Origin: Patescibacteria group bacterium
GTDB lineage: Bacteria > Patescibacteriota > Minisyncoccia > Phycocordibacterales > EsbW-18
NCBI GenBank assembly: GCA_038064475.1
Contig: JBBTTA010000003.1
Coordinates: 24,985 to 88,984 of the forward strand
Length of the DNA stretch: 64,000 bases
Direction: 5' to 3'
Shown here: positions 3,485 to 59,225 of the stretch, in pieces
Numbering within the stretch: position 1 is the first letter of the stretch
How the letters are laid out: each line of letters starts with the position of its first letter
Program-made: the position numbers and the translations under genes
Notes under the pieces: model-generated
What the model saw: the letters and a program-made list of their open reading frames with translations, nothing else
Database searches by the model: none
Told to the model about the DNA's origin: nothing

Positions 3485-3512
3485 TCTGTTCTCTGTTCTC
3501 TGTTCTCTGTTC
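3485..3512. repeat. Heptanucleotide tandem repeat (tctgttc)x4 between the surface-protein stop and capA start
   Basis: Four perfect units read directly, flanked by partial units. Confidence 0.9.
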
Positions 3513-6346
3513 TAGATTTCCCTGATGTCCGGTGATCCCTTCTCCGAATCATCGAGAACACTTGTGCAGTGAATATCCCCGCCGGCGCCTGGGGCATAGT
3601 CGATACCACCGTCACCGTCATTATCGAACCCGTCTGAACATTCAGTGACATCGCCCCCTGTGTCGTCATCCCCTTGTTCGTTATCGTCCAGCGCATCATC
3701 ACAGTGTGGATCATCGTCATTGTCTCCATCAATACCGTTTACACCATCCCAATCAACAAAGGTATCTGCATCATTGTCAGTACCGTCATTACACTGTGGT
3801 GCATTTACAAGAATCGTTACACTGTCACTCACATCGCCACTTTTATCTCCAGCTTCACACGTAATAGTGAATGTTGTATCACTTGAAAGCACTCCGGAAT
3901 CTTCTCCTTTCCCGCTATCATCACGACTTCCTGACCATGGAGGAATACCTTCGCTTGCTACACACGTTCCAGATGTAATTTCATTTGATTCCCATGTAAG
4001 TTCAACAACCGAATCAGTCCCTACAGGAGTTGGGTTGTCTGATCCATTGATCTTAAGATCAACTTCTGGTCCTCCAGGTGGAGGTGGTGGTGGCTCGGCA
4101 GTATAGGTAATCGTGTAGGAGATTGTTCCTCCACAATCAAGTGCTTGCGACGATGCTGGTGCAATTGATGGAGGAAGGTAGCCCTCGAGCGTTGGCACAT
4201 TTGAAAGAGTATAGTTACCTGCAAGTTGATCTGTGTATGTCTCTGAACTTTGGTTTATGTTTTCAGTAATCGTTCCACTTGGTCCAGACAATGACCATGT
4301 TGTTGGCACGTTTGATGACACAACAACTGTTCCCGCAGAACATGCTGGTTCTTCTTCTTCCACAGTAACGTAACAATTTGATGAGACGAGTGCATCACTA
4401 CCGACGTTCACTGTCTTCGTTCCTGTAGCAGAATATGAAACGGTAAATGAGGCCCCTGATCCGCTTGCAGGTGTTCCTCCAATTGCTGACCATGCATATG
4501 TGCTGTTTCCTCCTCGCGCCGTAAGCGTAACTGGTTGATTAACACCTACGGGTGGCTGACCGGCAGGCAAACATTCTGGACGAACACGTACCAGCACATT
4601 ATCGTTTACCCCCTGTACTGGTGGACCATTGCGTATGGCGTCACCAAAATAGTTGCGTCGAACAGTTGCTGCTGACACGTTTTGTGTTCCACTGTCTGCA
4701 ATTACTGCTACCCCCCAAAGTGTGTCGTTAGGGCTTGCTCCTTTACTTCGTGTTGTATCTGCACCCGAAGATGTCCACGATAGTGTTGGCACAACACCGT
4801 AGTTCACGAGAATTGATGTGCCATTGTACGCAACACCCGGAGCACTTGCACCAAGTTGGAATGTAAGAGGTGGTGGACCCGATGTAATGTTTATCGTACA
4901 TGCACCCGTCGCACCTGTGTCCGTGCGCGTAAAGGTGACCGTACGTGATCCTGTTGTTGTAAATGTTTTAGTGACAGATGATGCAGAACCGCTTGAGCCT
5001 GATGGTAAAATACCTGTCGTCGGAGAAATTGCCCATGTATGTGCCGCACCGCCGCTTGCTGTGAATGTCACACTATCTACATCTTCTTGTGCCGCTGTCG
5101 GGCCAGAGCATGTTACGTCTGTTGCGGGACAGGTGAGTGATTGTGGATTGTTCGAAAAAGCAACCCATTCATTCGTGTCTCCTTGTACTTCACCTGTAAT
5201 GCTATGAGCTACTCCTGTTGAAACAAGGCCAGCAAGGCTCGATGAGAATGTACATGATGCACCAACACAACCCGTTGCACCAGCTGTTGTTGATTTTACA
5301 AGTGTTCCATCAGAATAAATTCGAATCGGACGTGGTGCTGTTGTATCAACATCATCACCCCAACCAGTTACGGTACAATTTGCAAATGGTGGTGTGAATG
5401 CGCCTGTTGGCAAATCCCCCCCTCCAACCTCCACATTACACGTACTTGATTGTCCGTTCCGTGTCACTGTAACAACTTTTGTTCCTATTGTTGAATACGA
5501 AGTTGTACATGTTCCTCCTGTTGCACATGAACCTCCCCCCCCTGTATTCCATGTGTAGTACGGAGACGTTCCTCCGCTTCCTCCTGATGCTGTCACAACT
5601 GTATTTTGATCAGGGTTAACCAGAGAAGGGTTTGCTGAACATGATAGTGCTGATGGAGCCGTCACATTCACCGTAACGCTTTTATTCACCGTACCCCCAG
5701 GGCCTGTACATGACATTGAAAATGTCGTTGCGGTAGTGAGATCACTTGATGCATCGTTTCCTCCTGTTGCACTTCCTGTTGAAAACCCCGCACCCCCCGT
5801 TGCTGTACATGATGTTGTGTTTGTTGATGTCCACGTTAACGTTGTTGGTGTGTCTGATGTTACAGGGTTTGGAGACGCTGTAAGTGTTGCTGTTGGTGCG
5901 GGAGGGGCTGTAACAGTAACATTCACGGTCACTGAACCCCCTCCTTCAGGTGATGGATCTTCGACACAGTCACGATCAACACCGATAGCAAAGAGTGTGT
6001 CGGTTGTTAACACATCCGTTGTATACGAAAGCGTTCCAGGGTTTGTTGTGTACGTCAGTGTATGCCCAACAGGGTATGTGCGAGAGATATTGTATGGCGT
6101 AGCACCCGTACTCGAGTTGGTGAACGTGACAGGAAGTGTTGATCCTGATGATACGGCGATTGAATACACCGCATCGCGATTTCCTGCGCTGTTGGCATAC
6201 GTCGTCCCATTGATTGTCATACTCATGATAGGGACCGCCATTCCTGAACATACCTCTAGGGCACGTGCCGTGTTTGGGACCGCCATCCACACAAGTGCCA
6301 AAAGCGTACCGATACCAAGTAACGAATTTCGTACAATAGATTTCAT
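3512..6346 (-). CDS. Large secreted repetitive surface protein (944 aa), Thr/Ser/Gly-rich Ig-like repeats, C-terminal Asp-rich Cys-containing Ca-binding-like tail
   Basis: N-terminal signal peptide MKSIVRNSLLGIGTLLALVWMAVPNTARA; long low-complexity body; C-terminus CNDGTDNDADTFVDWDGVNGIDGDNDDD...CSDGFDNDGDGGIDY. Confidence 0.75.
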   Translation of the reverse strand: MKSIVRNSLLGIGTLLALVWMAVPNTARALEVCSGMAVPIMSMTINGTTYANSAGNRDAVYSIAVSSGSTLPVTFTNSSTGATPYNISRTYPVGHTLTYTTNPGTLSYTTDVLTTDTLFAIGVDRDCVEDPSPEGGGSVTVNVTVTAPPAPTATLTASPNPVTSDTPTTLTWTSTNTTSCTATGGAGFSTGSATGGNDASSDLTTATTFSMSCTGPGGTVNKSVTVNVTAPSALSCSANPSLVNPDQNTVVTASGGSGGTSPYYTWNTGGGGSCATGGTCTTSYSTIGTKVVTVTRNGQSSTCNVEVGGGDLPTGAFTPPFANCTVTGWGDDVDTTAPRPIRIYSDGTLVKSTTAGATGCVGASCTFSSSLAGLVSTGVAHSITGEVQGDTNEWVAFSNNPQSLTCPATDVTCSGPTAAQEDVDSVTFTASGGAAHTWAISPTTGILPSGSSGSASSVTKTFTTTGSRTVTFTRTDTGATGACTINITSGPPPLTFQLGASAPGVAYNGTSILVNYGVVPTLSWTSSGADTTRSKGASPNDTLWGVAVIADSGTQNVSAATVRRNYFGDAIRNGPPVQGVNDNVLVRVRPECLPAGQPPVGVNQPVTLTARGGNSTYAWSAIGGTPASGSGASFTVSYSATGTKTVNVGSDALVSSNCYVTVEEEEPACSAGTVVVSSNVPTTWSLSGPSGTITENINQSSETYTDQLAGNYTLSNVPTLEGYLPPSIAPASSQALDCGGTISYTITYTAEPPPPPPGGPEVDLKINGSDNPTPVGTDSVVELTWESNEITSGTCVASEGIPPWSGSRDDSGKGEDSGVLSSDTTFTITCEAGDKSGDVSDSVTILVNAPQCNDGTDNDADTFVDWDGVNGIDGDNDDDPHCDDALDDNEQGDDDTGGDVTECSDGFDNDGDGGIDYAPGAGGDIHCTSVLDDSEKGSPDIREI

Positions 6347-6536
6347 GGGACGTATAAATAGTTATAAACTCCTTTCAGTATAGTGCTAGACGAACCAAAA
6401 AATAAGAAGGTTATGCACATCCCATTGGAGGTGCAAAAAATTGCCCTACATTTTCGATGTCCTCTAACGGGACAGGGCAAAAAGAAAAGGCGCCCCGTGA
6501 AGAGACGCCTTGTATTGAAAAAAGAAGAGCTAGAGG

Positions 6537-7712: not shown

Positions 7713-8090
7713 CGCTTTTCCTTTCTGCCGTCAATGTGGCGGCGCTTGTCCTCCGTAGCTTTACGCGTAGGAGGAATAGGTATTTCGGTTGAACAACTAT
7801 AATTGCATTTCAAGGTTTTGACCTTGAAAACTAAGCTCTTCTTGTAAAAGAACTACCCATACCTAGTATAGTCACTGGGCAGAAGAAAAGTACCTCCTGT
7901 CAAGGTTTTCTGTACTAACCTGTGGACAATTTCTACGGGTTAAAACAAGGCCTAGTAAAGAGCCAAAATGAGGCTCGAGGAGGAGAATCCCCTTCTATTC
8001 CCCAACGTACCACGTCTTCCCAACCCCGTCAATGAAAACCAGTCTCTTGGGGGGTCTCTTACCTATCTCCCATCTTCCATACTCTATCTT

Positions 8091-8669
8091 CTATTGAGTC
8101 ACCGGCATTGTGTATGCAACCTCAACAACTGCTTTACCGCTCTGTTGCAATGTAAGTGTTATGTTTACTGTCTCTCCATTACGCTGTGCAGAGAAGTTTG
8201 TGACAGGAAGTTCATCAATTGATCCGTCTTTCAATACAACCCATCCCCCGTCAACCAAAAGTCGGCGGTAGCCATCAACAACCTCATGAAATTCAAGTGT
8301 CGACATGTAGCGCGCGACGGGCATCTGTTCACCGCGACCTGTGTATGCGATTGAGTAGCTTGTTTCTATTGCTGCACTTGGTTCAAGGAGTAATTCTTGT
8401 GGAAATCCCGCAACAAGTGAGCCTGCAGGTGCATGCGTAATCGCATTCCCCTCCTCGTCATACGTTACCCCATCGTCTTTCCCTTTACCTAAAAACCAAA
8501 GGGCTCCGACAATGAGAAGAATAATGACAATAATACTCACTAATACAGATGAGCTTTTTCGATGAGACTCTGGAGCCATTCCCCCGCCCATTGGTGTCGT
8601 GGTATTCATGCCTCCGTCTGTAAGAGGTGTCGTCATTGGACTTGTGTGGCGCATGTCTTGCATTCCCAT
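8091..8669 (-). CDS. Hypothetical membrane-anchored protein
   Basis: 192 aa, TM segment VLVSIIVIILLIVGALWFL, no recognisable domain. Confidence 0.55.
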   Translation of the reverse strand: MGMQDMRHTSPMTTPLTDGGMNTTTPMGGGMAPESHRKSSSVLVSIIVIILLIVGALWFLGKGKDDGVTYDEEGNAITHAPAGSLVAGFPQELLLEPSAAIETSYSIAYTGRGEQMPVARYMSTLEFHEVVDGYRRLLVDGGWVVLKDGSIDELPVTNFSAQRNGETVNITLTLQQSGKAVVEVAYTMPVTQ

Positions 8670-12817: not shown

Positions 12818-13912
12818 ATGCTACACTCTCCGCACATGACAAAAGCAAACATCACCACAAACAACAATGCAACGGTAACTATTGAAGGCGAGCTCCCACA
12901 CGAAGCCCTCAAAAAGCACCGTGCCGCATCCCTAAAACACTTGGGAAGTAAGGTTAAAATCGATGGTTTTCGTGAAGGTCACATCCCTGAAAACATCCTT
13001 ATTGACCGCATTGGCGAATACACCCTCCTCCAAGAAATGGCCGAGCGAGCACTTTCTGAGCACTATCCCCTTCTTCTTGTTGAACATAAGATTGATGCAA
13101 TCGGCCGCCCTGATATTTCAGTAACAAAACTCGCAGCAGGAAATCCTCTTGGTTTCAAAATTACAACAGCAGTCATGCCTGTCGTTGAACTTCCCGACTA
13201 CGCAACGCTTGCAAAAGATGCAGCAAAGAAAATTGGAAATGAACCTGATCTCGTGACTGAAGAAGATATCGATAAAGTTGTCGGACAACTTCTAGCAGAG
13301 AAACAAAAAGCAGAATCAGAAAAAACAAATCCGCCAGCTGGCGGACAGAAAACAGAAAACAAAGAAGAACTTACAAAAATGACTGATGATGTCGCAAAAA
13401 CATTTGGTCCTTTTGAAAACGTTCAACAGCTTCGTGCAAAAATCCGCGAAGGAATGGAGGCCGACAAAAAACGTCAACACATTGAGAAAAAGCGCGTGGA
13501 AATCATGGAGGTAATCATGAATGAGACAAAAGTTGTCATTCCTGACGTTCTTATTGATGCGGAGTTAAACAAACTCATGGCACAAATCTCACACGACGTT
13601 GAACACATGGGTATGAAACATGAAGACTACCTCAAAGCGATCGGAAAAACTGATGAGGATTTGCGCAAAGAATTTCGTCCCGACGCAGAGAAGCGCGCGA
13701 AAAGTCAGCTTGTCTTGAATGCGATTGCGTCAAAAGAAAATATTAAACCAGATCAAAAAGAGTTGGACCACGAAGTTGAACACCTTTTGTCACACCACAT
13801 GCCAAAGGGCGCTTCCGTTGGTGAACGTGAACGACAATCAGCAACCATTTACGTTGAAACACTCATGACAAATCAGAAAGTCTTGGAATTTTTAGAAAAA
13901 CAAGGAATGTAA
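12818..13912 (+). CDS. tig: Trigger factor
   Basis: 364 aa, N-terminal ribosome-binding domain with GFREGHIPENIL; directly upstream of clpP (conserved tig-clpP synteny). True start may be the internal Met at 12836. Confidence 0.8.
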   Translation: MLHSPHMTKANITTNNNATVTIEGELPHEALKKHRAASLKHLGSKVKIDGFREGHIPENILIDRIGEYTLLQEMAERALSEHYPLLLVEHKIDAIGRPDISVTKLAAGNPLGFKITTAVMPVVELPDYATLAKDAAKKIGNEPDLVTEEDIDKVVGQLLAEKQKAESEKTNPPAGGQKTENKEELTKMTDDVAKTFGPFENVQQLRAKIREGMEADKKRQHIEKKRVEIMEVIMNETKVVIPDVLIDAELNKLMAQISHDVEHMGMKHEDYLKAIGKTDEDLRKEFRPDAEKRAKSQLVLNAIASKENIKPDQKELDHEVEHLLSHHMPKGASVGERERQSATIYVETLMTNQKVLEFLEKQGM

Positions 13913-14018: not shown

Positions 14019-14068
14019 GGTCTAAATTACAAGCTTGATTCGTGATTCTTAATTCTTGCTTCTATTCT

Positions 14069-18919: not shown

Positions 18920-18955
18920 ATTTGGATATTAACTTAGTATTTTCCTCTCCATGTG

Positions 18956-19062
18956 AGTGAGCTTATCCTGTTGAAACGACTTGCGAGCGCGACGGCGCGA
19001 GCACGAGGAAAAATTCAGTAGAATTTTATCCGTGCGTTTCAAAAGGACTAAGCGAACAATTG
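18956..19062 (-). repeat. 107-nt structured element immediately 3' of tRNA-Pro; inverted copy of 20167..20274
   Basis: About 90 percent identical to the reverse complement of 20167..20274; 12-bp terminal inverted arms cctgttgaaacg/cgtttcaa(a/c)agg; internal hairpin with compensatory changes. Confidence 0.8.
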
Positions 19063-19133
19063 TCGGGGCGCCGAGAATCGAACTCGGGCTATTTGGTCCC
19101 AAACCAAACGTACTACCGCTATACTACGCCCCG
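19063..19133 (-). tRNA. tRNA-Pro (anticodon TGG), no encoded CCA
   Basis: Minus strand cggggcgtagtatagcggtagtacgtttggtttgggaccaaatagcccgagttcgattctcggcgccccga; anticodon loop tttggga. Confidence 0.85.
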
Positions 19134-20095: not shown

Positions 20096-20166
20096 GCGGG
20101 CATGGTTTAGTGGTAGAACACGTCCTTGCCAAGGACGAGACGGGAGTTCGATTCTCCCTGCCCGCA
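20096..20166 (+). tRNA. tRNA-Gly (anticodon GCC), no encoded CCA
   Basis: gcgggcatggtttagtggtagaacacgtccttgccaaggacgagacgggagttcgattctccctgcccgca; anticodon arm cgtcc-ttgccaa-ggacg. Confidence 0.88.
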
Positions 20167-20274
20167 CAAGACGTTCGCATGTTCCTGTTGAAACGCACGG
20201 ATAAAATGAAGCTTCATTTTTCCTCGTACTCGCGCCGTCGCGCTCGCAAGTCGTTTCAACAGGACAAGCTCACT
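20167..20274 (+). repeat. 108-nt structured element immediately 3' of tRNA-Gly(GCC); inverted copy of 18956..19062
   Basis: See 18956..19062. Confidence 0.8.
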
Positions 20275-20396
20275 CTACCGTTTAATACAAAAGGCAAAAC
20301 GGTAGATCCCCAGAACATTCGACTCTGTCTGTATAAGTTCTCCCTGCCCATGTACCTCGTGACCAGCTTCCTTGCGTAGTACACTTAGAATAGATT

Positions 20397-24270: not shown

Positions 24271-25185
24271 TTAATTCGAACGCTTCCCGTGGAAATTCTT
24301 GTGTACTTCTTTCAAGTGCCTATCAGTCACGTGCGTATATATCTGTGTCGTGGCGATATTGGCATGTCCCAAAAGCGCCTGAACGCTTCTGATATCTGCA
24401 CCGTTGCCCAAAAGGTCGGTTGCGAACGAATGACGAATGATATGCGGTGTCACTTTTTTGCTGATACCTGCTTTAATCGCGTACTGCTTCACCAAGCGTT
24501 CAACCGAGCGGGGAGTGAGGCGCAAATCTGAGGAATTTTTCGCATTTTTGCCAAGTTGTGCGAATAACGCATCATCGGTATCCGCTCGTTTGTCCAGATA
24601 TTTCTTTACCGAAGTTTTAGCCACATCTGATACGAACACAACACGCACTTTGTCGCCCTTTCCGCGCACCGAAAACTCCCCGCGTGAGAAATCGATGTCG
24701 CGCGACAGAGACACAATCTCTGATACACGCATGCCTGTTGAGAAAAGAAGTTCGAGAAGCGCTTTGTCGCGAAGGGATTGAACATCTTCACCTGACGGCT
24801 GTGCGAGTAGTCGATCAAGGTCTGTGTGTGAGATAAGATCGAGATCTCGATCACCGGTTTTCGCGAGTTCAATAACTTCAGGTTGTACAGTCTTGATATT
24901 TTTTTTACGAAGATATTTGAGAAATGCTCGAAGCGCAATCAAATAATAGTTTTGTGTTTTCTTTTTGAGCGTATTGTCTGTTGTCTGTTGTCTGTTATTT
25001 GTTGTCTGTCTATTAAGCCACAAACGGTAGTCGCGAATAATTGATTCTGTAATGTCCGTTGGGGAAGAGATTTTCGCGTATTCAAAAAAGCGCGTAAGGT
25101 AGCGGTCGTAATTTTCGATCGTCTTAATCGAGCGTCCGCGTTCGATTTCGAGATATTCTAGAAACTCTCTTTTGTACTTTTCCAT
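24271..25185 (-). CDS. Tyrosine site-specific recombinase, XerC/XerD type
   Basis: Start at MEKYKREFLEYLEIERGRSIKTIENYDRYL; catalytic region RHSFATDLL...LLGHANIATTQIYTHV. Contains an in-frame heptamer repeat (see 24974..25008). Confidence 0.8.
   Translation of the reverse strand: MEKYKREFLEYLEIERGRSIKTIENYDRYLTRFFEYAKISSPTDITESIIRDYRLWLNRQTTNNRQQTTDNTLKKKTQNYYLIALRAFLKYLRKKNIKTVQPEVIELAKTGDRDLDLISHTDLDRLLAQPSGEDVQSLRDKALLELLFSTGMRVSEIVSLSRDIDFSRGEFSVRGKGDKVRVVFVSDVAKTSVKKYLDKRADTDDALFAQLGKNAKNSSDLRLTPRSVERLVKQYAIKAGISKKVTPHIIRHSFATDLLGNGADIRSVQALLGHANIATTQIYTHVTDRHLKEVHKNFHGKRSN
24974..25008. repeat. Heptanucleotide tandem repeat (ttgtctg x4 plus variant ttatttg) inside the recombinase CDS
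   Basis: Read directly; encodes QTTNNRQQTTDN linker on the minus strand. Confidence 0.9.
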
Positions 25186-34018: not shown

Positions 34019-34087
34019 CCTCGCCCACAGAAAGTTCCGCGACTTTCTGTGGGCTTTCTGTTTCTGAAGGTTTAACCTTCATTTTTT

Positions 34088-34122
34088 GTTTTCTGTTTTC
34101 TGTTCTTTGTTTTCTGTTCTTT
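34088..34122. repeat. Heptamer tandem repeat (gttttct/gttcttt, 5 units) upstream of the UvrD/PcrA gene
   Basis: Read directly. Confidence 0.85.
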
Positions 34123-34153
34123 GTTACATGCTACATGTTTCGCGTTTTCTGCT

Positions 34154-40148: not shown

Positions 40149-40149
40149 T

Positions 40150-41922: not shown

Positions 41923-41923
41923 T

Positions 41924-44107: not shown

Positions 44108-44115
44108 ATTTACGT

Positions 44116-44733
44116 ATGGATGAACAAGATTTTAATAAAGTAATACAAAACCGTTTAGCTGAACTACCAGAAAGTGTTCGGTCGGCAATTGCACATATAA
44201 ATTACCCTCAACAAGTTCAAAACCTGATGCAGCGCTTTCAGCTACGGCTCGATCAGGCGGGAATCGTTGATAGAGAAATTATGCTTGTTCTTCTAGGCAT
44301 GGAGCACCCCGACATACTCCTCAATAATCTTGTGCGTGAAGGCGGAATTGCGCGTGATGTTGCAACACAAATAGTTAATGATCTGAATGAAAATATTTTT
44401 AAAGCAATCAAACAAGATCTTGTGGAGACGTACACAAAAGATCAACTGGTTGAAGAAATTTTGGACCCAAATAAATCGAGAACGGTTTTGCCCGATAGAT
44501 CTGCCACACAAAGTACACCAAGCCAATCTCCTCAAGTGACGCTCGCACAACCAACCCCAACTCAACCAACCGGTATTGATCGTACGATGCCAAATGACAT
44601 TGCAAAAACAAAGCTTGAACAAAGCTTTCGTATTCCTCCTCAAACAACAACAGTTCCTCTGCATGGCGATATCCCAAAAATGACACCCCCCGCACGCCGC
44701 ACACTAGATCCCTATCGAGAACCCACGCAGTAG
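44116..44733 (+). CDS. Hypothetical protein
   Basis: 205 aa, Pro/Thr/Gln-rich C-terminus. Confidence 0.45.
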   Translation: MDEQDFNKVIQNRLAELPESVRSAIAHINYPQQVQNLMQRFQLRLDQAGIVDREIMLVLLGMEHPDILLNNLVREGGIARDVATQIVNDLNENIFKAIKQDLVETYTKDQLVEEILDPNKSRTVLPDRSATQSTPSQSPQVTLAQPTPTQPTGIDRTMPNDIAKTKLEQSFRIPPQTTTVPLHGDIPKMTPPARRTLDPYREPTQ

Positions 44734-44804
44734 GAGATGGAAGATAGAATATAGAAGATAGGAAAACTAAAATATATTTGATGTGTGTCGTGTAGAGTTT
44801 TTAG

Positions 44805-45182
44805 ATGGAAACTCCACTTAAGGATTTTACAAGCTTACGAGTGTGGCAACACTCTCGTCATTTTGCTGTAAAGATTTATAAAATTACCAGCGCATTTCCT
44901 CGAGATGAGATTTTTGGTTTAACGAGTCAACTTAGGCGTGCTTCCGTATCAATTGCTTCAAATATTGCGGAAGGTTTTGGCAGATTTTCGTTTAAAGAAA
45001 AAGTTCAATTCTACAATATTGCTCAATCCTCACTAATTGAAACGCAAAATCAGCTTATAATTTCAAAAGATGTCGACTATCTCCCTGAAAAAGAGTTTCA
45101 TATGGTATACAATGAGTCTGTGCTTATAGCGAAGATGTTATCTGCCCTCGTTAGGTCGTCTCGATCAAAATTTGGCTCTTAA
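44805..45182 (+). CDS. Four-helix-bundle protein (TIGR02436-like, the family often found in 23S rRNA intervening sequences)
   Basis: 125 aa; LRVWQHSRHFAVKIYKITSAFPRDEIFGLTSQLRRASVSIASNIAEGFGR pattern; flanked by inverted heptamer-repeat blocks 44735..44770 and 45186..45214. Confidence 0.7.
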   Translation: METPLKDFTSLRVWQHSRHFAVKIYKITSAFPRDEIFGLTSQLRRASVSIASNIAEGFGRFSFKEKVQFYNIAQSSLIETQNQLIISKDVDYLPEKEFHMVYNESVLIAKMLSALVRSSRSKFGS

Positions 45183-45217
45183 CCCATCTTCCATATTCCA
45201 TCTCCTATATCCAACTC

Positions 45218-45652
45218 ATGCGATTCGAAGTGCCACAATTTATTGAAGTCGAGGACAAAATATTTGGTCCTTTAACGTTCAAACAATTCGTCTACCTCGC
45301 CGGAGGTGGTGGTTTGTGTGTGATTATCTGGATTTTCGTTCCAAAAATCATCGGTATCTTTCTTATTCTCGCTGTTGCTGGTTTTGCGCTCGCACTTGCG
45401 TTCTACCAACCCAACAATAAGCCGTTTGTGGCTCTTCTTGAGGCCGCACTTCGCTATGGAACGGGAGGAAAGCTCTATATTTGGAAAAAAGAAGAGAAAA
45501 AGGCAGTGTCATCAGCAACTGCAGGTCAAAAGGCTCAAGATGCGGCCGCAAATCTCTCTGTCCCTCGTCTTTCAGACAGCCGTTTGCGCGATCTTGCATG
45601 GAGTCTCGATGTACATGACTCACTCTATAGCGATCAAGCAGAAAACAAATAA
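45218..45652 (+). CDS. PrgI/VirB3-like small membrane protein
   Basis: FIEVEDKIFGPLTFKQFVYLAGGGGLCVIIWIF matches the PrgI-family N-terminus; position before VirB4. Confidence 0.55.
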   Translation: MRFEVPQFIEVEDKIFGPLTFKQFVYLAGGGGLCVIIWIFVPKIIGIFLILAVAGFALALAFYQPNNKPFVALLEAALRYGTGGKLYIWKKEEKKAVSSATAGQKAQDAAANLSVPRLSDSRLRDLAWSLDVHDSLYSDQAENK

Positions 45653-45715
45653 TAGAAAGGTATTTCATACACAGAACGTGTTGTGGATGCTCATTCGTAG
45701 GTTAGAATAGAACTA

Positions 45716-46372
45716 ATGGCTCAAACAAAAGCCCAGTCGGCGCAGGCCTTTGTACCTGTGAAAGAAATTCGTAATGGTATTGTCGTTCTCAAAGACGGCT
45801 CTCTTCGCGCAATTTTGCTCGCTTCGTCATTGAATTTTGCCCTCAAGTCTGAAGACGAGCAATCGGCTATCATTTTGCAATTCCAAAATCTCCTCAACTC
45901 AGTTGAATTTCCAATACAAATCTTTATTCAGTCACGCGAACTCGATATTCGTCCGTACCTAGCACTCCTTGAAGCACAATTAAAAGAGCAGACCATCGAC
46001 CTCATTAAGGTACAGACACATGAGTACATCGACTTCATCAAAGGTTTCACTGAAAACGTTAATATTATGTCAAAGAGTTTCTTTATCGTGATTCCATACA
46101 GCTCCGCAATGATTAAAACTGCGGGTGGTATCAGTGGTGTCGTGGGCGGACTTGTTGGCACAAAAAAGAGTCGTGATCCAAAAGCAGCACTTGATCTCTT
46201 TGAGGAGGGGAGAAGTCAATTGGAGCAACGCGTCAGTGTTGTCTCACAAGGTCTCTCGCGCACAGGTATTCGCGTTGCACAACTTGGTACTGAAGAGTTG
46301 GTCGAGCTCTACTACAAATTATTTAATCCGGGTGATTCAGAAAAACCAATTAAACTTGGACCAACTTCATAA
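45716..46372 (+). CDS. VirB4-type ATPase, N-terminal segment (ends at in-frame TAA)
   Basis: VPVKEIRNGIVVLKDGSLRAILLASSLNFALKSEDEQ typical VirB4/TraC N-domain; same frame as the next ORF. Confidence 0.6.
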   Translation: MAQTKAQSAQAFVPVKEIRNGIVVLKDGSLRAILLASSLNFALKSEDEQSAIILQFQNLLNSVEFPIQIFIQSRELDIRPYLALLEAQLKEQTIDLIKVQTHEYIDFIKGFTENVNIMSKSFFIVIPYSSAMIKTAGGISGVVGGLVGTKKSRDPKAALDLFEEGRSQLEQRVSVVSQGLSRTGIRVAQLGTEELVELYYKLFNPGDSEKPIKLGPTS

Positions 46373-46375
46373 TCT

Positions 46376-48310
46376 ATGGCATTCCTCGATATTTTTAAAA
46401 AGAAAAAGAATGATGCGCTCGATATTGTTCCGGTGTTGCCGAAAGATATCTACGAAGCGGGTGTGCTGGAATTGCAAGATATAATTGCACCGTCAGCGTT
46501 GCGTATCACACCACGTGAACTATCACTCGGAGATAAAATAGTTCGCACGTTCTTTGTTATTTCATATCCGCGATTTCTTCCTGACAACTGGATTTCTCCA
46601 ATTATCAACCTCGACAAGGTGTTCGATATTTCTATTTCAATTATTCCTGTTGAAACATCGTCAGCGCTCAAAGATTTCCGAAAACGCGTTGCCGAAGTAC
46701 AAAGTCAGATTCACACACGTGAAGAAAAAGGTCTTGTGCGCGATCCGATTTTGGATGCTGCGTACCAAAACCTTGAGAACCTCCGTGATCAATTGCAGCA
46801 GGCAACAGAGAAACTTTTTGATGTTGGTCTCTACATCTCGATGTATGCAGATAGTGAGACAGAGCTTGATAAAATCGAGTCTGAAATCCGCTCAATTCTT
46901 GAATCTCGACTCGTGTATGTGAAGCCAGCACTCTTTCAACAGGAGCAGGGATTTAAGAGTGTGATGCCAATTGGAACGGATGAATTGGGTGTGCACTCAA
47001 AACTGAACACGTCTCCGTTGTCGAGTTTTTTTCCATTCGTCTCATTCGACCTCACGTCGGACAAAGGAATCCTGTATGGTGTCAATCGTCACAACTCAAG
47101 TTTGATTCTCTTCGATCGTTTTTCAATGCCGAACTACAACTCAGTGACATTCGCCACATCTGGTGCCGGAAAATCATACGCAACAAAATTGGAAATTCTT
47201 CGTACACTCATGTTCGACACTGAAGTGATTGTTCTCGACCCTGAACGTGAATACGAATACATGGCAGAAGCGATGGGTGGGCGTTACTTCAATATTTCTT
47301 TGACATCAGAACATCACATCAATCCATTTGATCTTCCTCCTGCACGTGAAGATGAAACTCCATCAAACGTATTGCGTTCACACATTGTGACGTTGGTTGG
47401 TCTTTTCCGCATCATGTTCGGCGGTCTCACACCTGAAGAAGATGCAATCATCGATCGCGCAATCACCGAAACGTACGCACTCAAAGACATCACCGGTGAA
47501 GCAGACTTCACCGGAACCGAACCACCACTTCTTTCTGACTTTGAATTGGTGCTTGCGGGTATGCAAGGAGCAGAATCACTCGTACAACGATTGTCGAAGT
47601 ACACGAAAGGAACGTGGGCAGGTTTCATCAACAAACCAAGTAACGTCGACATCAATAAAAAGTTCGTAGTGTTCTCGGTGCGTGACATGGAAGACGAATT
47701 GAAACCAGTTGCTATGTACCTCGTTGCAAACTACATCTGGAGCGCGGTGCGAAAGAATTTGAAAAAACGATTGCTCGTTATTGATGAGGCGTGGTGGATG
47801 ATGAAAGATGAAGATACTGCATCACTTCTCTTTGGTCTCGCAAAACGTGGACGAAAATATTACCTCGGTATTGCAACAATCACACAAGACGTCGGTGACT
47901 TCTTGCGCTCACCATATGGTTTGCCAATCATCACCAACTCTTCAATTCAGTTGCTCTTGAAGCAATCTCCATCATCTATTGATGTTGTGCAGCGCACCTT
48001 TAATCTCACTGACGAAGAGAAGTATTTGTTACTTGAGTCAGAGGTAGGAGAGGGAATCTTCTTTGCTGGTCTTAAACATGTGGCAATTAAGAGTATTGCC
48101 TCATATACCGAGGATCAAATCATTACATCCGATCCATCCCAAGTTTTGGCCCTCAAACAGGCTCGTACGGAATGGAAAAACACTAAGCGGGGTGCTGAAG
48201 CAGCAGGTGAAGTGGCTCCATTGCCTCCAATTCTTCCTCCAGCTCCAGCGGAACCCACAATTCCGCAAGCCCCAGGAACACCAAACACCGATCTTAAGGG
48301 TATTGTCTAA
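46376..48310 (+). CDS. VirB4-type ATPase, main segment with Walker A/B
   Basis: Walker A TSGAGKSYAT, Walker B RLLVIDEAWW, CagE/TrbE/VirB4 family architecture. Confidence 0.75.
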   Translation: MAFLDIFKKKKNDALDIVPVLPKDIYEAGVLELQDIIAPSALRITPRELSLGDKIVRTFFVISYPRFLPDNWISPIINLDKVFDISISIIPVETSSALKDFRKRVAEVQSQIHTREEKGLVRDPILDAAYQNLENLRDQLQQATEKLFDVGLYISMYADSETELDKIESEIRSILESRLVYVKPALFQQEQGFKSVMPIGTDELGVHSKLNTSPLSSFFPFVSFDLTSDKGILYGVNRHNSSLILFDRFSMPNYNSVTFATSGAGKSYATKLEILRTLMFDTEVIVLDPEREYEYMAEAMGGRYFNISLTSEHHINPFDLPPAREDETPSNVLRSHIVTLVGLFRIMFGGLTPEEDAIIDRAITETYALKDITGEADFTGTEPPLLSDFELVLAGMQGAESLVQRLSKYTKGTWAGFINKPSNVDINKKFVVFSVRDMEDELKPVAMYLVANYIWSAVRKNLKKRLLVIDEAWWMMKDEDTASLLFGLAKRGRKYYLGIATITQDVGDFLRSPYGLPIITNSSIQLLLKQSPSSIDVVQRTFNLTDEEKYLLLESEVGEGIFFAGLKHVAIKSIASYTEDQIITSDPSQVLALKQARTEWKNTKRGAEAAGEVAPLPPILPPAPAEPTIPQAPGTPNTDLKGIV

Positions 48311-48315
48311 ATACT

Positions 48316-48828
48316 ATGGACGAGGAACAGAAATCCCAAAGGCGAATATCGAACGTAACCGCCGTATTGATGGTTATTGTTGCGGTGGTTCTTGATCTTA
48401 TAAACCTCATTCCCGTTGTTGGTGTTTTGGTTGGTAATATCCTCGCTCTTTTAATATTCGGCTTGTGGTATCTCATGCTTGGAATCCCAATTATGGGGGC
48501 ACGGCAATTTGCACGGTGGGGAACAAGTTGGCTTATCGATACCATATCTGTTGGTTATCTCCCCGGCATTACGCTCGGTGCTATACTTATTATTGTAGTA
48601 ACACGTACCGAGGATAAGACCGGAATAAGCCTTATTGATAAGGTAAAGCCAACTTCGGCAGGAACGCTCAAAAACGCTCGGCGTGCGGCAAACCCAGAGA
48701 GAACATTACAAGCACGAGATCGATTGGAACGCCGATTGGCGCGCCGAGCACAAGAAAGTGAGGGTGCGGCAACAAAACCAAAAGAGCACCCCCAAATCAA
48801 AGACATTAATTACCCCAAGGCGGCATGA
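48316..48828 (+). CDS. Membrane protein, hypothetical (T4SS cluster)
   Basis: 170 aa, 3-4 TM helices, basic C-terminal tail. Confidence 0.5.
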   Translation: MDEEQKSQRRISNVTAVLMVIVAVVLDLINLIPVVGVLVGNILALLIFGLWYLMLGIPIMGARQFARWGTSWLIDTISVGYLPGITLGAILIIVVTRTEDKTGISLIDKVKPTSAGTLKNARRAANPERTLQARDRLERRLARRAQESEGAATKPKEHPQIKDINYPKAA

Positions 48829-49562
48829 CGTACGAATCAAGAATCAAGAATCAAGAATCAAGAATTTGCGTTTTGTTTTTAGCGTGCTTCTTGTTTCTTG
48901 CTTCTTGCTTCGTTTTCGCGCGGAGCGCGATAGCACAGAATACTGCAACAGTTGATTTGGTATGGGAAGCAAACTCCTACGTGCCACCGTTCTATAAAGG
49001 TAAAGCCTTAACAACAACCGATGGAGATGTTGATGTATATGCATTTGTTCCAAGTACGTTTGGCAATCCGCTACGCGCAACATATACATGGGAATTAAAC
49101 AGCCAAGTACTTGGCAGTCTCTCGGGTGTAGGTAGATCATCATTGCGTGTTTCAGGTTCTCCTTTTATTGATGATCGTGCAATTAGAGTGCGTGTTGTTG
49201 GAGAGAATGGTCGTGAGGGTTTTGGATATGTACGCATTCCGGCGGTAAAACCAACTATCATGGTCTATGTTGATTCACCACTTGCTGGTGTGCAATTTGG
49301 AAACGCTGTGGTTACTCGTTTAGAAGCACAAACAGAGACCGATCTTACACTAACCGCATACCCATACTTCTTTTCAACATCAGATCGCAATGAAAATCTT
49401 TCATATACATGGAATGTAAACGGTGTTGCGTCAGAAACACGAGGACCAACACTTGTTGCGCGCTCTGAAACAACAGGGACGTCAACGGTAAGTGTTGAGA
49501 TAAACAATGTTTCTAAGATTCTTGAGCGTGCTTCGAAGATATTCTCTGTCGTTCTACAATAG
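48825..49562 (+). CDS. Secreted hypothetical protein with heptamer repeat in its 5' coding end
   Basis: ATGA overlap with the previous gene; n-region MTYESRIKNQESRI followed by h-region CVLFLACFLFLASCFVFA. Confidence 0.55.
   Translation: MTYESRIKNQESRICVLFLACFLFLASCFVFARSAIAQNTATVDLVWEANSYVPPFYKGKALTTTDGDVDVYAFVPSTFGNPLRATYTWELNSQVLGSLSGVGRSSLRVSGSPFIDDRAIRVRVVGENGREGFGYVRIPAVKPTIMVYVDSPLAGVQFGNAVVTRLEAQTETDLTLTAYPYFFSTSDRNENLSYTWNVNGVASETRGPTLVARSETTGTSTVSVEINNVSKILERASKIFSVVLQ
48834..48868. repeat. Heptanucleotide tandem repeat (gaatcaa)x4 plus variant, inside CDS codons 4-14
   Basis: Read directly; the ATG is at 48825. Confidence 0.9.
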
Positions 49563-49601
49563 AGTTATAAGAATAGAAAACAGAGAACAGTATATACTCA
49601 A

Positions 49602-50486
49602 ATGATAAATTTCAAATTTCAAATTTCAAAAAAAGCTCCTTCTTTCTTTTTGTTATTTGTTATTTGTTATTTGTTATTTGTGATTACGCTCCCTGTGTTT
49701 GCACAACAAAACCCACCAACGGTAGATCTCCTTGTTAAGGATTTACCGGGAATTGGCCCTGCTACAGATCTTAAGGGCTTTCTTCAGGGAATATTTAAAC
49801 TCACACTTGGTATTGCGGTCACCGCCGCTATAGCAATCATTGTGTGGAATGGTATTCGCTACATGGTGAGCGATGCGGTTGGTGGAAAAGAGGATGCAAG
49901 GAAATGGATTGGAGAAGCGTTGTGGGGATTGGTACTCGCATTTTCTGCTGTGCTTATTCTTTCAACAATAAACCCACAGCTTACACAATTTGATTTTCTT
50001 ACAACACTGCAAGAAGTGCGTGAAGCTGCTGGTGGTCCGCCGGGGGGTCCTCCCCCTCCTCCACCTCCACCAGGAGATACTCCTCCGGACGGACAATTTA
50101 CCTATCAACCTAGAGTAGCTCCACAACGACTACATGCGTCTTCTCAACTAGAAACATTATTAAGTTGTATTGCAAACAGGGTTCCGGGAAATGTTGGAGA
50201 GATTTCGTCAATATCAGACGAAATGATTACGTCGGGTCAAAGAACCTTTGAGGAATGTGCCGCCGGTGGACAATCTGTTGGATGTGCCCACAGAGCGGGT
50301 TCGCTTCACTATGGTGGATTATTTTGTGTTGGACAGTCATATGCTGTCGACTTTGGAGACGAACAAAATATGAATGTTCTTGGTGATGCGGCCGTATTGT
50401 GTAACCCAAACGTTGCAGTAATAAACGAAGGAAATCATGTGCACATAAGTTTAGGAGATAGTGCGGGTTGTGGACCAGGAAACTAG
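49602..50486 (+). CDS. VirB2/TrbC-like pilin-type membrane domain fused to a C-terminal LAS/M15-like zinc-peptidase-like domain
   Basis: Signal peptide, two hydrophobic helices (LTLGIAVTAAIAIIVW; ALWGLVLAFSAVLILS), Pro-rich linker, C-terminal CAHRAGSLHYGG...AVDFGD...NEGNHVHISLGD (SxHxxG / AxD / HxH pattern). Confidence 0.45.
   Translation: MINFKFQISKKAPSFFLLFVICYLLFVITLPVFAQQNPPTVDLLVKDLPGIGPATDLKGFLQGIFKLTLGIAVTAAIAIIVWNGIRYMVSDAVGGKEDARKWIGEALWGLVLAFSAVLILSTINPQLTQFDFLTTLQEVREAAGGPPGGPPPPPPPPGDTPPDGQFTYQPRVAPQRLHASSQLETLLSCIANRVPGNVGEISSISDEMITSGQRTFEECAAGGQSVGCAHRAGSLHYGGLFCVGQSYAVDFGDEQNMNVLGDAAVLCNPNVAVINEGNHVHISLGDSAGCGPGN
49641..49675. repeat. Heptanucleotide tandem repeat (ttgttat)x4 plus variant ttgtgat inside the signal-peptide coding region
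   Basis: Read directly; encodes LLFVICYLLFVI. Confidence 0.9.
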
Positions 50487-50488
50487 CC

Positions 50489-51778
50489 ATGAAAAAAGCA
50501 CTCATCATCACGGGTATATTGTGTGTCATCATCGCAGGGGTGCTTGCGTTTTTGTGGTATTCATCAATCAAACCTTCTGCAACAACATCATCTGACGCCG
50601 GTTCGTCTGATAGAACCTTTTCACCATTCAGTTCATTTGTAGATTTTCTTACGGGAGACGACAGTGAAACAGAAAACACGGAACAGATAACAGATAACGG
50701 AGGGGAGTCGACAGCTCGTTCTGTGTATGATTTGTTGTCTATTACACCTGCGTACGAAGTAACTGACGCACTTGTTGCAAACGCAGTTATTGTATTCACA
50801 GGAACAACAACAGGAAATATACTTCGCTATGTGGAGCGCGAAACAGGACATATTTATGAACTATCACTTCTTTCTGGTGTCCTGCGACGCCTTTCAAATA
50901 CAACCGTGCCTCGTATTCAGGAAGCATATTTTGGAAATAACGGTTCTTTAATTGCACTGCAGTACTTGGGCGAGGATGGAGAAACAATAGAAACATTTGT
51001 GGGAAGCGTCACAACAACTTCTATTGAATCGTCGAGTGAGTTCACGGGAGATTTTCTTGCACAAAATATTCAAACCATAACACTCCATCCAACACAACCT
51101 GGTGTTTTCTACACTCTAAAAGCAGGTGGTGGTACTGCGGGGCGGTTGTTTGATCCCGTATCAAAACAGATTGCTTCTTTATTCTCGTCTCCGTTGTCTG
51201 AATGGACGGCTTTGTGGAATAGCGGCACAAACATTTATCTCCATACAAAACCCTCTTCGTCAGCTCAAGGTTTTGCATATGCAATCGCGCCTGGAAGCGC
51301 TACACCAGCGCGTGTTTTTACAAACACGTTCGGCATAACCCTTCTTCCAAACCCTTTTAATAAAAACATCCTAGTTGGATCCTCAAAAGACACACCAAAA
51401 ATGTCTCTTTTTAATAACACCGATGGTTCCACGGTGTCACTTGTGGGCACAACGTTCCCTGAAAAGTGTGTGTGGAAAACGGCAACGGTCCTTGTGTGTG
51501 CAATTCCAGAGTCGGCTTCTTCAATTGATTCATGGTACAACGGCAGTGTTTCATTTTCTGATAGTGTTTGGAAAATAAATGTTGAAACGGGGCTTACTGA
51601 TTTCTTGTTCGATAGCGAACAAACCCAAAAAGAATTTGATGCAACACATCTCTCAGTAAGTTCTGATGGGACAATACTTTCTTTTATAAACAAAAAAAAC
51701 TCACACCTTTGGGTTGCAAGTCTTTTACCTCGAACCGATACAATTGATGTTAATGCTGAATTTGAAGAAAATTACTAA
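50489..51778 (+). CDS. Membrane-anchored/secreted hypothetical protein (430 aa)
   Basis: Start MKKALIITGILCVIIAGVLAFLWY at 50489. Confidence 0.5.
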   Translation: MKKALIITGILCVIIAGVLAFLWYSSIKPSATTSSDAGSSDRTFSPFSSFVDFLTGDDSETENTEQITDNGGESTARSVYDLLSITPAYEVTDALVANAVIVFTGTTTGNILRYVERETGHIYELSLLSGVLRRLSNTTVPRIQEAYFGNNGSLIALQYLGEDGETIETFVGSVTTTSIESSSEFTGDFLAQNIQTITLHPTQPGVFYTLKAGGGTAGRLFDPVSKQIASLFSSPLSEWTALWNSGTNIYLHTKPSSSAQGFAYAIAPGSATPARVFTNTFGITLLPNPFNKNILVGSSKDTPKMSLFNNTDGSTVSLVGTTFPEKCVWKTATVLVCAIPESASSIDSWYNGSVSFSDSVWKINVETGLTDFLFDSEQTQKEFDATHLSVSSDGTILSFINKKNSHLWVASLLPRTDTIDVNAEFEENY

Positions 51779-55798: not shown

Positions 55799-55799
55799 T

Positions 55800-58303: not shown

Positions 58304-58321
58304 TGAAACCCTTAGGTTTTA

Positions 58322-58651: not shown

Positions 58652-59128
58652 TTAGCGAGAATGAGAAACAAGTGCGGTAAGTGCCACTGCAATCGCATCA
58701 TATTCATCATCGCGCATTTTTTTATCGGGAATTTCAATAAGATGATGGAGCATTGCTGCGACATCTTCTTTTGATCCACGACCACTTCCTGCGACAGCAC
58801 TTTTTACTTGTTGTGGAGCAAATTCTTGTATCTGACAGTTTGCATTTTGTGCAACATACAAAAGAGCACCACGAACTTCAGCAACATGCATTGCTGTTTT
58901 TTGATTGTTACTGAAAAAAAGTGTTTCGAGTGCAATCACGTCGGGTGAAAATTGATCAATAACAGACACAATACGTTCAATGCCGGCATGAAGACGTTCT
59001 GCAAACGGAAGGTTCTTACCCGTTTCAAAACATTCTGAATGGAGGAGGGCATGTGTTTCTCGAGTACCTTCAAGAATTGCGATACCAAGTCTGTCGTATC
59101 CGGGATCTATACCAAGGACTCGAATCAT
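58652..59128 (-). CDS. ruvC: Crossover junction endodeoxyribonuclease RuvC
   Basis: Start MIRVLGIDPGYDRLGIAILE; catalytic Asp/Glu pattern. Confidence 0.9.
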   Translation of the reverse strand: MIRVLGIDPGYDRLGIAILEGTRETHALLHSECFETGKNLPFAERLHAGIERIVSVIDQFSPDVIALETLFFSNNQKTAMHVAEVRGALLYVAQNANCQIQEFAPQQVKSAVAGSGRGSKEDVAAMLHHLIEIPDKKMRDDEYDAIAVALTALVSHSR

Positions 59129-59144
59129 AAAGAAATAACAGATA

Positions 59145-59225
59145 ACAAAGAACAGATAACAAAAAACAAGGAACAAGACAGATTTTTCTGTTCTTTATTC
59201 TCTATTCTCTGTTTTTTGTTTTCTG
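59145..59225. repeat. Imperfect inverted block of heptamer-like repeats (aacagat/aacaaag ... tctgttc/tctattc) between yebC and ruvC
   Basis: Read directly; the two halves are approximate reverse complements. Confidence 0.7.

Follow-up and report, generated by a model that had tools for sequence, protein, structure and literature searches.

Heptanucleotide arrays at gene boundaries of a groundwater patescibacterial contig and their association with intervening-sequence protein genes

The window considered here, a 64,000-nt stretch of contig JBBTTA010000003.1 from a Patescibacteria group bacterium, carries short tandem arrays of imperfect heptanucleotides, many of them at gene boundaries, and one pair of these arrays encloses a gene of the 23S rRNA intervening-sequence protein (IVP) family. 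By an exact protein match, the window was traced to a contig from 0.1-µm-filtered Hainich groundwater (Hain_H41_01um_R2_170), and its nearest YebC proteins among species-representative genomes, 50–56% identical, come from Patescibacteria/Paceibacteria genome bins. According to the gene calls, coding sequence makes up 87% of the contig, and 13.1% of the window is intergenic. The genes called include tig-clpP, uvrD, an operon resembling a type IV secretion system (T4SS) with PrgI, TraC-like, VirB4-like and TrbC-like members, dnaA-dnaN, ruvB, yebC and ruvC. A scan of the window against Rfam at gathering thresholds returned four tRNAs and an L10 leader as its sole matches, and known RNA families were accordingly rejected as the identity of the heptamer arrays.

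Period-7 arrays of the window

The window was searched with Tandem Repeats Finder, with a strict scan and with a lag self-match scan in 28-nt windows, dinucleotide shuffles serving as control. Tandem Repeats Finder reported 15 period-7 rows, together with period-14 and period-21 rows that re-describe some of those arrays. The strict scan found five arrays of period 7, none of periods 5, 6, 8 or 10–15, and none in 30 dinucleotide shuffles. When self-matches of at least 20/28 were counted at lags 4 to 22, there were 17 at lag 7, 9 at lag 14 and 7 at lag 21, against 0–3 at every remaining lag and about zero in shuffles, while a looser scan (at least 18/28) gave 16 lag-7 arrays against 1, 3, 0, 4, 0 and 0 at lags 5, 6, 8, 9, 10 and 11, respectively. 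Nine of these 16 arrays are mainly intergenic, which exceeds the intergenic share of the window (binomial P = 5e-5), and four of the seven coding arrays fall within codons 3–29 of two adjacent open reading frames (ORFs). The coding arrays stay in frame and lie in tolerant segments.

A preliminary description of this DNA had listed heptamer arrays of mostly 4–5 related units and regarded them as a systematic class at gene boundaries. A period-7 array was recovered at every one of its coordinates, the number of units holds for the arrays of the window, and heptamers were found to exceed other unit sizes there and to be enriched at boundaries, in line with a systematic, non-random class. The relatedness of the units was borne out in part: units of three or more families are each repeated at places in the 64 kb that are not linked, and no single heptamer word prevails genome-wide. 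CTGTTCTTTGTT has 12 matches in the window with at most one mismatch, against 0.77 expected, and is common to the uvrD array and the 3′ arm of the yebC-ruvC hairpin; GAATCAAGAAT likewise has 12 matches, against 2.6 expected; and GAAGATA-type units are common to the array around 8066 and to both arms of the IVP gene. Most arrays consist of 3–6 imperfect units, with 76–96% matches.

Three forms of array were distinguished, namely inverted pairs, a wide pair enclosing a 125-aa ORF, and single arrays (Table 1). Most of the arrays have an inverted partner with which they fold into a long stem, and on the transcribed strand a purine-rich array comes first and the complementary pyrimidine-rich array follows. 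The folded stems carry a mismatch or a small internal loop every 7 nt.

Table 1. Coordinates of the heptamer arrays and associated features (window positions, except in the last row)
Feature	Coordinates	Strand	Units and context
IVP cassette, 5′ arm	44731..44765	+	TAGGAGA TGGAAGA TAGAATA TAGAAGA TAGG; purine-rich, C-free
IVP cassette, IVP/S23p gene	44805..45182	+	125 aa, four-helix bundle; PF05635, TIGR02436 and PDB 2GSC matches
IVP cassette, 3′ arm	45184..45214	+	CCATCTT CCATATT CCATCTC CTATATC C; pyrimidine-rich, G-free
Hairpin without ORF, inverted array pair	59133..59229 (arrays 59133-59175, 59184-59229)	-	yebC-ruvC spacer
Inverted pair	48834-48865 and 48885-48911	+	GAATCAA x4.6 and TGCTTCT x3.9; codons 4-29 of 245-aa ORF
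Inverted pair	49607-49630 and 49649-49685	+	AAATTTC x3.4 and TTTGTTA x5.3; codons 3-28 of TrbC-like 294-aa ORF
Single array, 5′-arm type	3480..3513	-	TGTTCTC on + strand, GAACAGA x4.9 on mRNA; 96% matches
Single array, 5′-arm type	8056..8099	-	TAGAAGA TAGAGTA TGGAAGA TGGGAGA TAGG
Single array, 3′-arm type	14034..14068	+	CTTGATT CGTGATT CTTAATT CTTGCTT CTATTCT; up to clpP ATG at 14069
Single array, 3′-arm type	34082..34125	+	TTTTCTG/TTCTTTG, x5.3; also reads as period 14 or 21
Single array, 3′-arm type	59763..59795	-	mRNA CTTGATT CATGATT CTTAATT CCTAATT CTCA
In-frame array, 36 nt	24974..25009	-	encodes RQTTNNRQQTTDN, N-terminal part of tyrosine recombinase
Weak array	50666..50702	+	AACAGAT type; variable linker of 429-aa ORF
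Short purine-rich array	49575..49590	+	AATAGAA AACAGAG AACAG, about 2.5 units; 245-aa gene stop to TrbC-like ATG
Array in trigger-factor gene	13345..13361	+	ACAGAAA x2.4; 18/28 matches, the threshold value
Gemmatimonadota inverted pairs	L032 3421-3553; L042 5679-5775; L050 3730-3803; L052 18252-18515; L055 8099-8233

The wide pair forms a complete cassette placed in the T4SS-like operon, between a 205-aa gene and the PrgI-like gene. The 5′ arm starts with the TAG that terminates the 205-aa gene, and 3 nt separate the end of the 3′ arm from the PrgI ATG at 45218. The enclosed ORF matches PF05635, the '23S rRNA intervening-sequence protein' family (E = 3.8e-38), TIGR02436, 'four helix bundle protein' (E = 2.4e-36), and the crystallised protein XCC0516 (PDB 2GSC, five chains; E = 2.6e-17). 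The two arms, which lie 420 nt apart, pair in both the minimum free energy and the centroid fold of 44700–45240. The host of this cassette is a protein-coding operon and not helix 25 or 45 of 23S rRNA, and no rRNA was found in the window. The operon itself (39156–51778) is long and co-oriented, and besides its conjugation-like genes (PrgI, TraC-like, VirB4-like ATPase, TrbC/pilin-like) it holds several large ORFs without Pfam match. It adjoins yidC-rnpA-dnaA-dnaN, its synteny is kept in the relatives L163, L165 and L168, and its bearer is an ultra-small groundwater bacterium.

Three inverted pairs lack an enclosed ORF. The first takes up the whole 99-nt yebC-ruvC spacer, from the yebC stop codon to the ruvC ATG, and on the mRNA its 5′ arm is of AACAGAA type and its 3′ arm of TCTGTTN type, with a fold of −34.4 kcal/mol (z = −6.0) and one mismatch per 7 nt. 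An intrinsic terminator was rejected as its identity, being not called by a consensus scan of 58900–60100, and the stem, of about 40 bp, is AT-rich. The two remaining pairs lie inside coding sequence. That of the 245-aa ORF specifies the n- and h-regions of the signal peptide and folds at −33.9 kcal/mol (z = −3.2), and that of the TrbC-like ORF encodes the signal peptide as well, with a fold of −25.4 kcal/mol (z = −7.3) and a predicted stem that takes in the AUG. In both array-bearing secreted proteins, the purine-rich arm is translated into the charged n-region and the pyrimidine-rich arm into the hydrophobic h-region. In L161, L162 and L165, the orthologues of the 245-aa protein carry ordinary, array-free signal peptides (24 and 34 aa), and those of the TrbC-like protein have signal peptides of 19 aa; thus, array-free versions span 19–34 aa, against 34–37 aa for the array-encoded versions of the window. 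Additionally, the TrbC-like gene of L162 reads TTTTTGT at the place of the window's (TTTGTTA)x5, which, judging from this alignment, looks like expansion in place. The segments 48825–48935 and 49602–49705 belong to adjacent secreted T4SS-like proteins whose signal peptides come wholly from heptamer hairpins, and in L102 (577–668) a third N-terminus is read through the right-arm arrays of an IVP gene, downstream of it.

The single arrays are predicted to be unstructured (z about 0). The purine-rich ones (3480 and around 8066) start at the stop codon of the preceding gene, and the pyrimidine-rich ones stop at most 5 nt short of the next ATG (clpP and yebC) or, at uvrD, about 30 nt short of it, geometries that match the 5′ and 3′ arms of the ORF-containing pair. 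The array at 3480–3513, predicted unstructured, runs from the TAG stop codon of a 944-aa gene to about 12 nt before the ATG of a PGA_cap gene, and its GAACAGA unit resembles the GACAGAT repeats of the Coxiella intervening sequence (IVS). The array at 8056–8099 begins on the TAG stop codon of a 190-aa gene and shares the unit type of the IVP 5′ arm; a degraded IVP gene downstream of it was considered and rejected, the best tblastn match having E = 0.16 and not being collinear. Upstream of clpP, no Shine-Dalgarno-like purine stretch was seen by eye between the array and the ATG, and this array is predicted unstructured (z = −0.2). The yebC array ends 5 nt (TTTTT) before the ATG at 59755, and the arrays near the clpP, yebC and PrgI starts all end within a few nt of the ATG without a Shine-Dalgarno sequence, as judged by eye. 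The uvrD array lies about 30 nt upstream of the start at 34154, after a terminator-like hairpin. This strong hairpin (34023–34054), just upstream of the array, follows an uncalled hydrophobic 38-aa ORF, MSRFILYFAIGSALASFFLISYRLREIGAHLKTIAEKK, with a GGAGG-type ribosome-binding site (33902–34054).

IVP genes and heptamer arrays beyond the window

A metagenome scan with an IVP alignment yielded 80 loci encoding proteins 43–56% identical, of which 72 had usable flanks; since the scan patterns lie inside the IVP protein, flank repeats were not selected for. Lag-7 periodicity (at least 15/21) was found in at least one 100-nt flank at 55 of the 72 loci and in both flanks at 24, and other lags seldom exceeded 14/21. 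Lag-7 arrays numbered 7.5/kb in the flanks and 0.31/kb in the rest of these loci, with 0–0.13/kb at lags 5, 6 and 8–11, and the lag-7 density stood at 4.3–4.6/kb within 150 nt of the IVP gene against 0.2–0.4/kb farther out, so that 7-nt arrays are about 15–24 times denser in IVP flanks than elsewhere. The arms have a median length of 4.3–4.4 units, with a sharp mode at 4–5 and a steep drop above 5. About half of the left arms reach within a few nt of the IVP ATG, and about half of the right arms begin no more than about 5 nt from the stop codon. C makes up 4% of the left arms, and G 4% of the right arms. The IVP gene is co-oriented with the upstream ORF at 64 of 67 loci and with the downstream ORF at 48 of 59, and its ATG follows the upstream stop codon at a median distance of about 32 nt, which is one arm length. 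A duplex z-score below −3 was obtained for cognate arms at 25 of 72 loci and for mismatched partners at 7 of 72; overall, arm-to-arm pairing was seen in 25–36 of the 72 metagenomic loci, and also in L015.

The same build was found on plasmids of Nostoc, Calothrix, Aulosira, Pseudanabaena, Geminocystis, Stanieria, Picosynechococcus, Anabaena, Leptolyngbya, Azospirillum and Riemerella, where all 14 IVP loci have purine-rich and pyrimidine-rich flanks and 12 show at least 16/21 lag-7 matches in a flank. On the cyanobacterial plasmids L151, L173 and L174, sense IVP cassettes stand inside CRISPR-cas operons (in the orders cas6, IVP, cas4; cas10, IVP, cmr3; and IVP, cas4). The IVP flanks of a Pseudanabaena plasmid hold at least 14 units (CTAAAAG, CCAAAAG) in direct rather than inverted arrangement. 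The pair at 44.7–45.2 kb is the local case of a rule that crosses phyla, namely that IVP genes lie between inverted heptamer arrays.

Arrays distant from the IVP gene occur at 0.27/kb on IVP-bearing contigs against 0.045/kb in 25 Patescibacteria yebC loci, a difference of about sixfold, and at 0.22/kb in the window. A cis-proximity effect of IVP on other arrays was rejected, the density being flat from 150 to 2600 nt, and the excess therefore belongs to whole contigs or genomes. Heptamer arrays of unrelated units were found in the yebC flanks of 4 of the 25 distant Patescibacteria (0.66/kb against 0.067/kb; Fisher P = 3e-4). The yebC flanks (59228–59755 in the window; L014, L015, L020, L025 and L057) are a recurrent site of arrays or hairpins, and the YebC of the window is short, at 175 aa. 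In the yebC loci L011–L058, a subfamily hidden Markov model and phmmer matched only the IVP gene of the window, which is weak evidence of absence given that both missed the Pfam-detected IVP gene of L015; in phages, tblastn found no IVP homologue. Period-7 arrays also occur on Gemmatimonadota and Cytophagales loci, and GC-rich Gemmatimonadota contigs carry inverted heptamer pairs, for example GGTGAAT/CTTCACC and AGGGGTT/ATCCCTA.

Empty sites, stability and minor features

In relatives of the window, both filled and empty sites were found. L157 carries an orthologous cassette, with an IVP 74% identical, the same IVP-PrgI synteny and a left arm of the same unit type and similar length that differs by point changes only. 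On the other hand, L163 and L164 (PrgI 84% identical) read TAA-T-ATG where the window holds the 484-nt cassette, and L167 and L169–L171 (YebC 83% identical) read TAA-(1–2 nt)-ATG where it holds the 99-nt hairpin, which is a clean insertion into a 1–2 nt spacer without a local seed. No target-site duplication was seen at these two junctions. At a greater distance, in L015 (YebC 51% identical), the yebC-ruvC spacer itself contains an IVP gene between inverted AAATCCG-type arms. Assemblies of the same population from independent samples cover most arrays at 99.7–100% identity and, at the consensus level, show no indel in any covered array. Phase variation was rejected on this ground, and on the sampled time scale the arrays are not contingency loci. 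In all, the arrays seem to have two origins: some would be discrete insertions, and others, as far as such alignments can tell, local 7-mers that expanded in place where the sequence is weakly constrained.

Among the minor arrays of Table 1, the one in the tyrosine recombinase gene is unchanged in the independent assembly L064 and probably encodes a tolerant segment; that between the 245-aa and TrbC-like genes is below the scan threshold and doubtful; and that in the trigger-factor gene is probably chance or a minimal seed. The single arrays left of about 40 kb (3480, around 8066, 14034, 24974 and 34082) are pyrimidine/T-rich on the + strand, and those around 50682 and at 59763 are purine-rich; cumulative GC skew is lowest near 38 kb, and dnaA is found at 53107. 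A replication-strand effect or coincidence could account for the split (n = 7); as the cause of the orientation, replication-strand bias was set aside, for it agrees in 7 of 7 cases but in a small sample, and the 5′- or 3′-arm class relative to transcription fits better.

The window also contains a perfect 9-nt repeat, CCTCCACCA x4.6 (23678–23718), within a minus-strand ORF of 209 aa, and two of the three single-nucleotide polymorphisms separating L064 from the window (23707 and 23719) lie in or beside it. An inverted repeat of 132 nt, 85% identical (18955–19085 and 20144–20275), overlaps tRNA-Pro (19062–19133, minus strand) and tRNA-Gly (20096–20167, plus strand) with their flanks, and the L10 leader (RF00557, 2189–2318, 46.9 bits) stands upstream of rplJ-rplL, as expected.

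Interpretation and comparison with known systems

With moderate confidence, we interpret the heptamer arrays as the arms of hairpin elements that form a family akin to bacterial IVS. A full element would consist of a purine-rich array of about 4–5 units, an IVP gene (PF05635/TIGR02436) and a complementary pyrimidine-rich array, inserted in sense into a host transcription unit exactly between a stop codon and the next start codon; on this account, the window would hold one full element (44731–45214), three ORF-less versions and about five half-elements. On the transcript, the paired arms would form imperfect double-stranded stems of 28–35 bp, which may be substrates of RNase III, by analogy with the 23S IVS of Coxiella and the hmw1A 5′-untranslated-region (5′-UTR) hairpin of Haemophilus. 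Such cutting would uncouple the neighbouring cistrons and release the IVP message, and the unpaired pyrimidine-rich arms would act as unstructured leaders without Shine-Dalgarno sequence.

Several observations weigh against this explanation. The gene for RNase III (rnc) was not found in the 73 kb read, which leaves cleavage to analogy only, and cutting of hairpins that lie in signal-peptide codons, if efficient, would be harmful. Statistically clear arm pairing occurs in only about half of the IVP loci. Since the ORF-less hairpins and single arms, except that around 8066, differ in unit type from the IVP arms, their descent from IVP cassettes is putative. The region upstream of yebC in L169 is homologous to that of the window, but the ~40 nt next to the ATG contain no repeat there and are similar in length; the linker of an orthologue of the 429-aa ORF is equal in length and array-free. 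The arrays of the yebC 5′-UTR and of the 429-aa linker thus replace sequence, and that of the TrbC-like gene looks expanded in place, patterns that, as read from the alignments, would suit a mutational process as well as an element. Finally, the hairpin-element explanation leaves the period of 7 unaccounted for.

One rival explanation is a neutral mutational origin of the arrays. According to an idea of Mrazek (2007), as cited in PMC4692102, DNA polymerase slippage would be intrinsically biased to 7-nt units, and arrays would gather in unconstrained sequence, their link with IVP being secondary, with arrays and IVP genes both settling in tolerant spacers. Such a by-product agrees with the heptamer excess reported among simple sequence repeats (SSRs) of many bacteria, with the placement of arrays in linkers, signal peptides, 5′-UTRs and spacers, with the apparent in-place growth of the TTTGTTA seed in the TrbC-like gene, with replacement at similar or equal length at the yebC 5′-UTR and the 429-aa linker, and with the period-7 arrays of Gemmatimonadota and Cytophagales. 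However, arm length peaks at 4–5 units and drops above 5 instead of decaying geometrically, the same unit families occur at unlinked sites, and the 15–24-fold density in IVP flanks, the exact stop/start geometry and the fixed purine-then-pyrimidine order speak against a by-product; in addition, the 99-nt hairpin was cleanly inserted into a spacer of 1–2 nt with no local seed, and complementary inverted arms are not made by slippage alone. We consider this origin unlikely. The preliminary description had likewise suggested a specific slippage- or repeat-generating mechanism; a repeat-generating mechanism is plausible, as in the comparison of (TTTGTTA)x5 with the TTTTTGT of the orthologue, whereas its suggestion that the arrays tune promoter spacing or translation is not supported.

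Another alternative, which we regard as quite improbable, is that the arrays are binding sites of IVP itself, a pentameric ring taking up one 7-nt unit per subunit in the manner of TRAP, so that 4–5 units would constitute one site, the arms around the IVP gene would be autoregulatory and the remaining arrays would form a post-transcriptional regulon. The TRAP ring binds tandem RNA triplets. Consistent with such binding are the pentamer of the homologue XCC0516 (PDB 2GSC, five chains), the arm mode of 4–5 units, the flanking of the factor's own gene by arrays, the genome-specific heptamer words, found at over 150 sites in Xanthomonas and in Beggiatoa, and the array density about six times higher on IVP-bearing contigs, without decay with distance; moreover, for the TAACTGA arrays next to start codons, MacGregor suggested that some post-transcriptional regulator is at work (PMC4679880). 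Against this putative binding, the window has three or more unit families for its single IVP gene, the authors of the Coxiella study conclude that S23p probably goes unexpressed (PMC4990558), and covariation of unit type with IVP is expected equally from co-inheritance in cassettes.

The reading of the arrays as hypermutable contingency SSRs, in which the number of units would set promoter spacing or translation (a tuning suggested in the preliminary description), is very improbable and largely refuted at the consensus level: a unit change would shift frame or spacing, 7 not being a multiple of 3, the heptamers of H. influenzae hmw1A/2A behave in this way and Coxiella strains differ by one unit, 2 versus 3 (PMC4990558), but most arrays here are imperfect (76–96% matches), those in coding sequence stay in frame, the expected length variation is missing from the covered arrays of independent assemblies, an orthologous arm keeps a similar length despite 26% protein divergence, the neighbours are mostly housekeeping genes (clpP, uvrD, yebC, ruvC), and 4–5 units, at which lengths peak, fall far short of the at least 10 of Haemophilus hmw. 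Annotators should therefore not take such arrays for phase-variation switches.

Three puzzles are connected by these data: the origin of heptanucleotide repeats, on record from cyanobacteria since about 1990 and from many other bacteria since 2007; the way in which rRNA intervening sequences arose and spread; and the role of the very widespread TIGR02436/PF05635 protein. In four phyla or more, IVP genes are enclosed by inverted arrays, the majority of which have a 7-nt period, and these genes behave as sense inserts in ordinary operons, not in rRNA alone. The genomes that bear them also hold gene-less hairpins and half-elements of the same build, and the window offers a clear example of new N-terminal signal peptides arising from a hairpin. 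The link yields testable hypotheses: that RNase III processes the operon transcripts, and that IVP binds the heptamer arrays.

Among known systems, the Correia/NEMIS elements of Neisseria are small inserts bounded by inverted repeats, co-transcribed and processed by RNase III as hairpins, with filled and empty sites between strains. Correia elements have near-identical copies, defined terminal repeats and a TA target duplication. The elements of the window likewise show presence or absence with precise empty sites in relatives, whereas their copies are not near-identical and share only the period and the unit family. In H. influenzae, the (ATCTTTC)n array of hmw1A is transcribed and forms an arm of a 5′-UTR hairpin that is cut by RNase III (PMC12721329), so that hmw1A/hmw2A resemble the present case in having a transcribed heptamer array as one arm of a long hairpin; they differ in their at least 10 perfect units, their phase variation and their restriction to an adhesin locus, against the short, imperfect and stable arrays found here (PMC12721329).

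The TAACTGA repeats of marine Beggiatoaceae, cyanobacteria and Bacteroidetes are similar in comprising 2–6 heptamers that abut start codons, some of them over the upstream stop, in having housekeeping genes among their targets and in occasional in-frame arrays at protein termini (PMC4679880). They end 1 nt or a few nt from start codons, and Shine-Dalgarno sequences are rare; in contrast to the window, Beggiatoaceae have one unit genome-wide and almost no inverted pairs, and no associated gene was identified (PMC4679880). The GGGAATC arrays of Xanthomonas, the GGGGAYT arrays of Nostoc and the STRR repeats, which belong to heterocystous cyanobacteria, share the 7-nt unit, lengths of mostly about 4 units, an arrangement as single arrays or convergent pairs in operon spacers and the lack of a link to phase-variable genes (PMC4692102). 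X. campestris has 186 GGGAATC arrays, mostly of 4 units among the table rows examined, with 70–75 inverted pairs that include the groES-groEL spacer, and the single or paired state is usually conserved between Xanthomonas species (Rehm et al., PMC4692102). Its array #15 in the supplementary table, GGGAATC x4, lies over the start codon of XCC0516, on which the paper does not comment (PMC4692102). These repeats are G-rich, with one unit per genome, and have been read as G-quadruplex formers, whereas the arrays of the window are AT-rich and fall into at least three families.

In the 23S IVS of Coxiella burnetii, 2–3 GACAGAT repeats and a degenerate GACAGAA precede the S23p ORF, RNase III makes its 5′ cut at the first repeat, and the terminal stem has 28 bp (PMC4990558). 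The complete cassette of the window shares with it a PF05635 four-helix-bundle ORF inside terminal inverted repeats, a stem of about 28 bp, the sense orientation in the host transcript and heptamers directly upstream of the ORF (GACAGAT x2–3 there, GAAGATA and GAACAGA types here). The hosts differ, being helix 25 or 45 of 23S rRNA in Coxiella and protein-coding operons here (T4SS-like and yebC-ruvC); in the window, ORF-less versions and single arms are also scattered at gene boundaries, and RNase III cleavage would apply only by analogy. A general rule linking IVP genes to heptamers was not found stated in the literature, a full-text search of an incomplete library having returned the Coxiella paper alone; the link thus appears unreported.

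It is conceivable, and put forward only tentatively, that the STRR repeats, the GGGAATC arrays of Xanthomonas, the TAACTGA arrays of Beggiatoa and the arrays of this candidate-phyla-radiation (CPR) genome constitute one IVS-derived system in which a pentameric IVP recognises and perhaps propagates the arrays. Given the IVP pentamer and arms of 4–5 units, the ring might, speculatively, bind one unit per subunit, and if so this would explain both the period of 7 and the 4–5 units. The ORF-less hairpins and single arms would then be non-autonomous derivatives or regulatory sites, some of them co-opted, for example as signal peptides.

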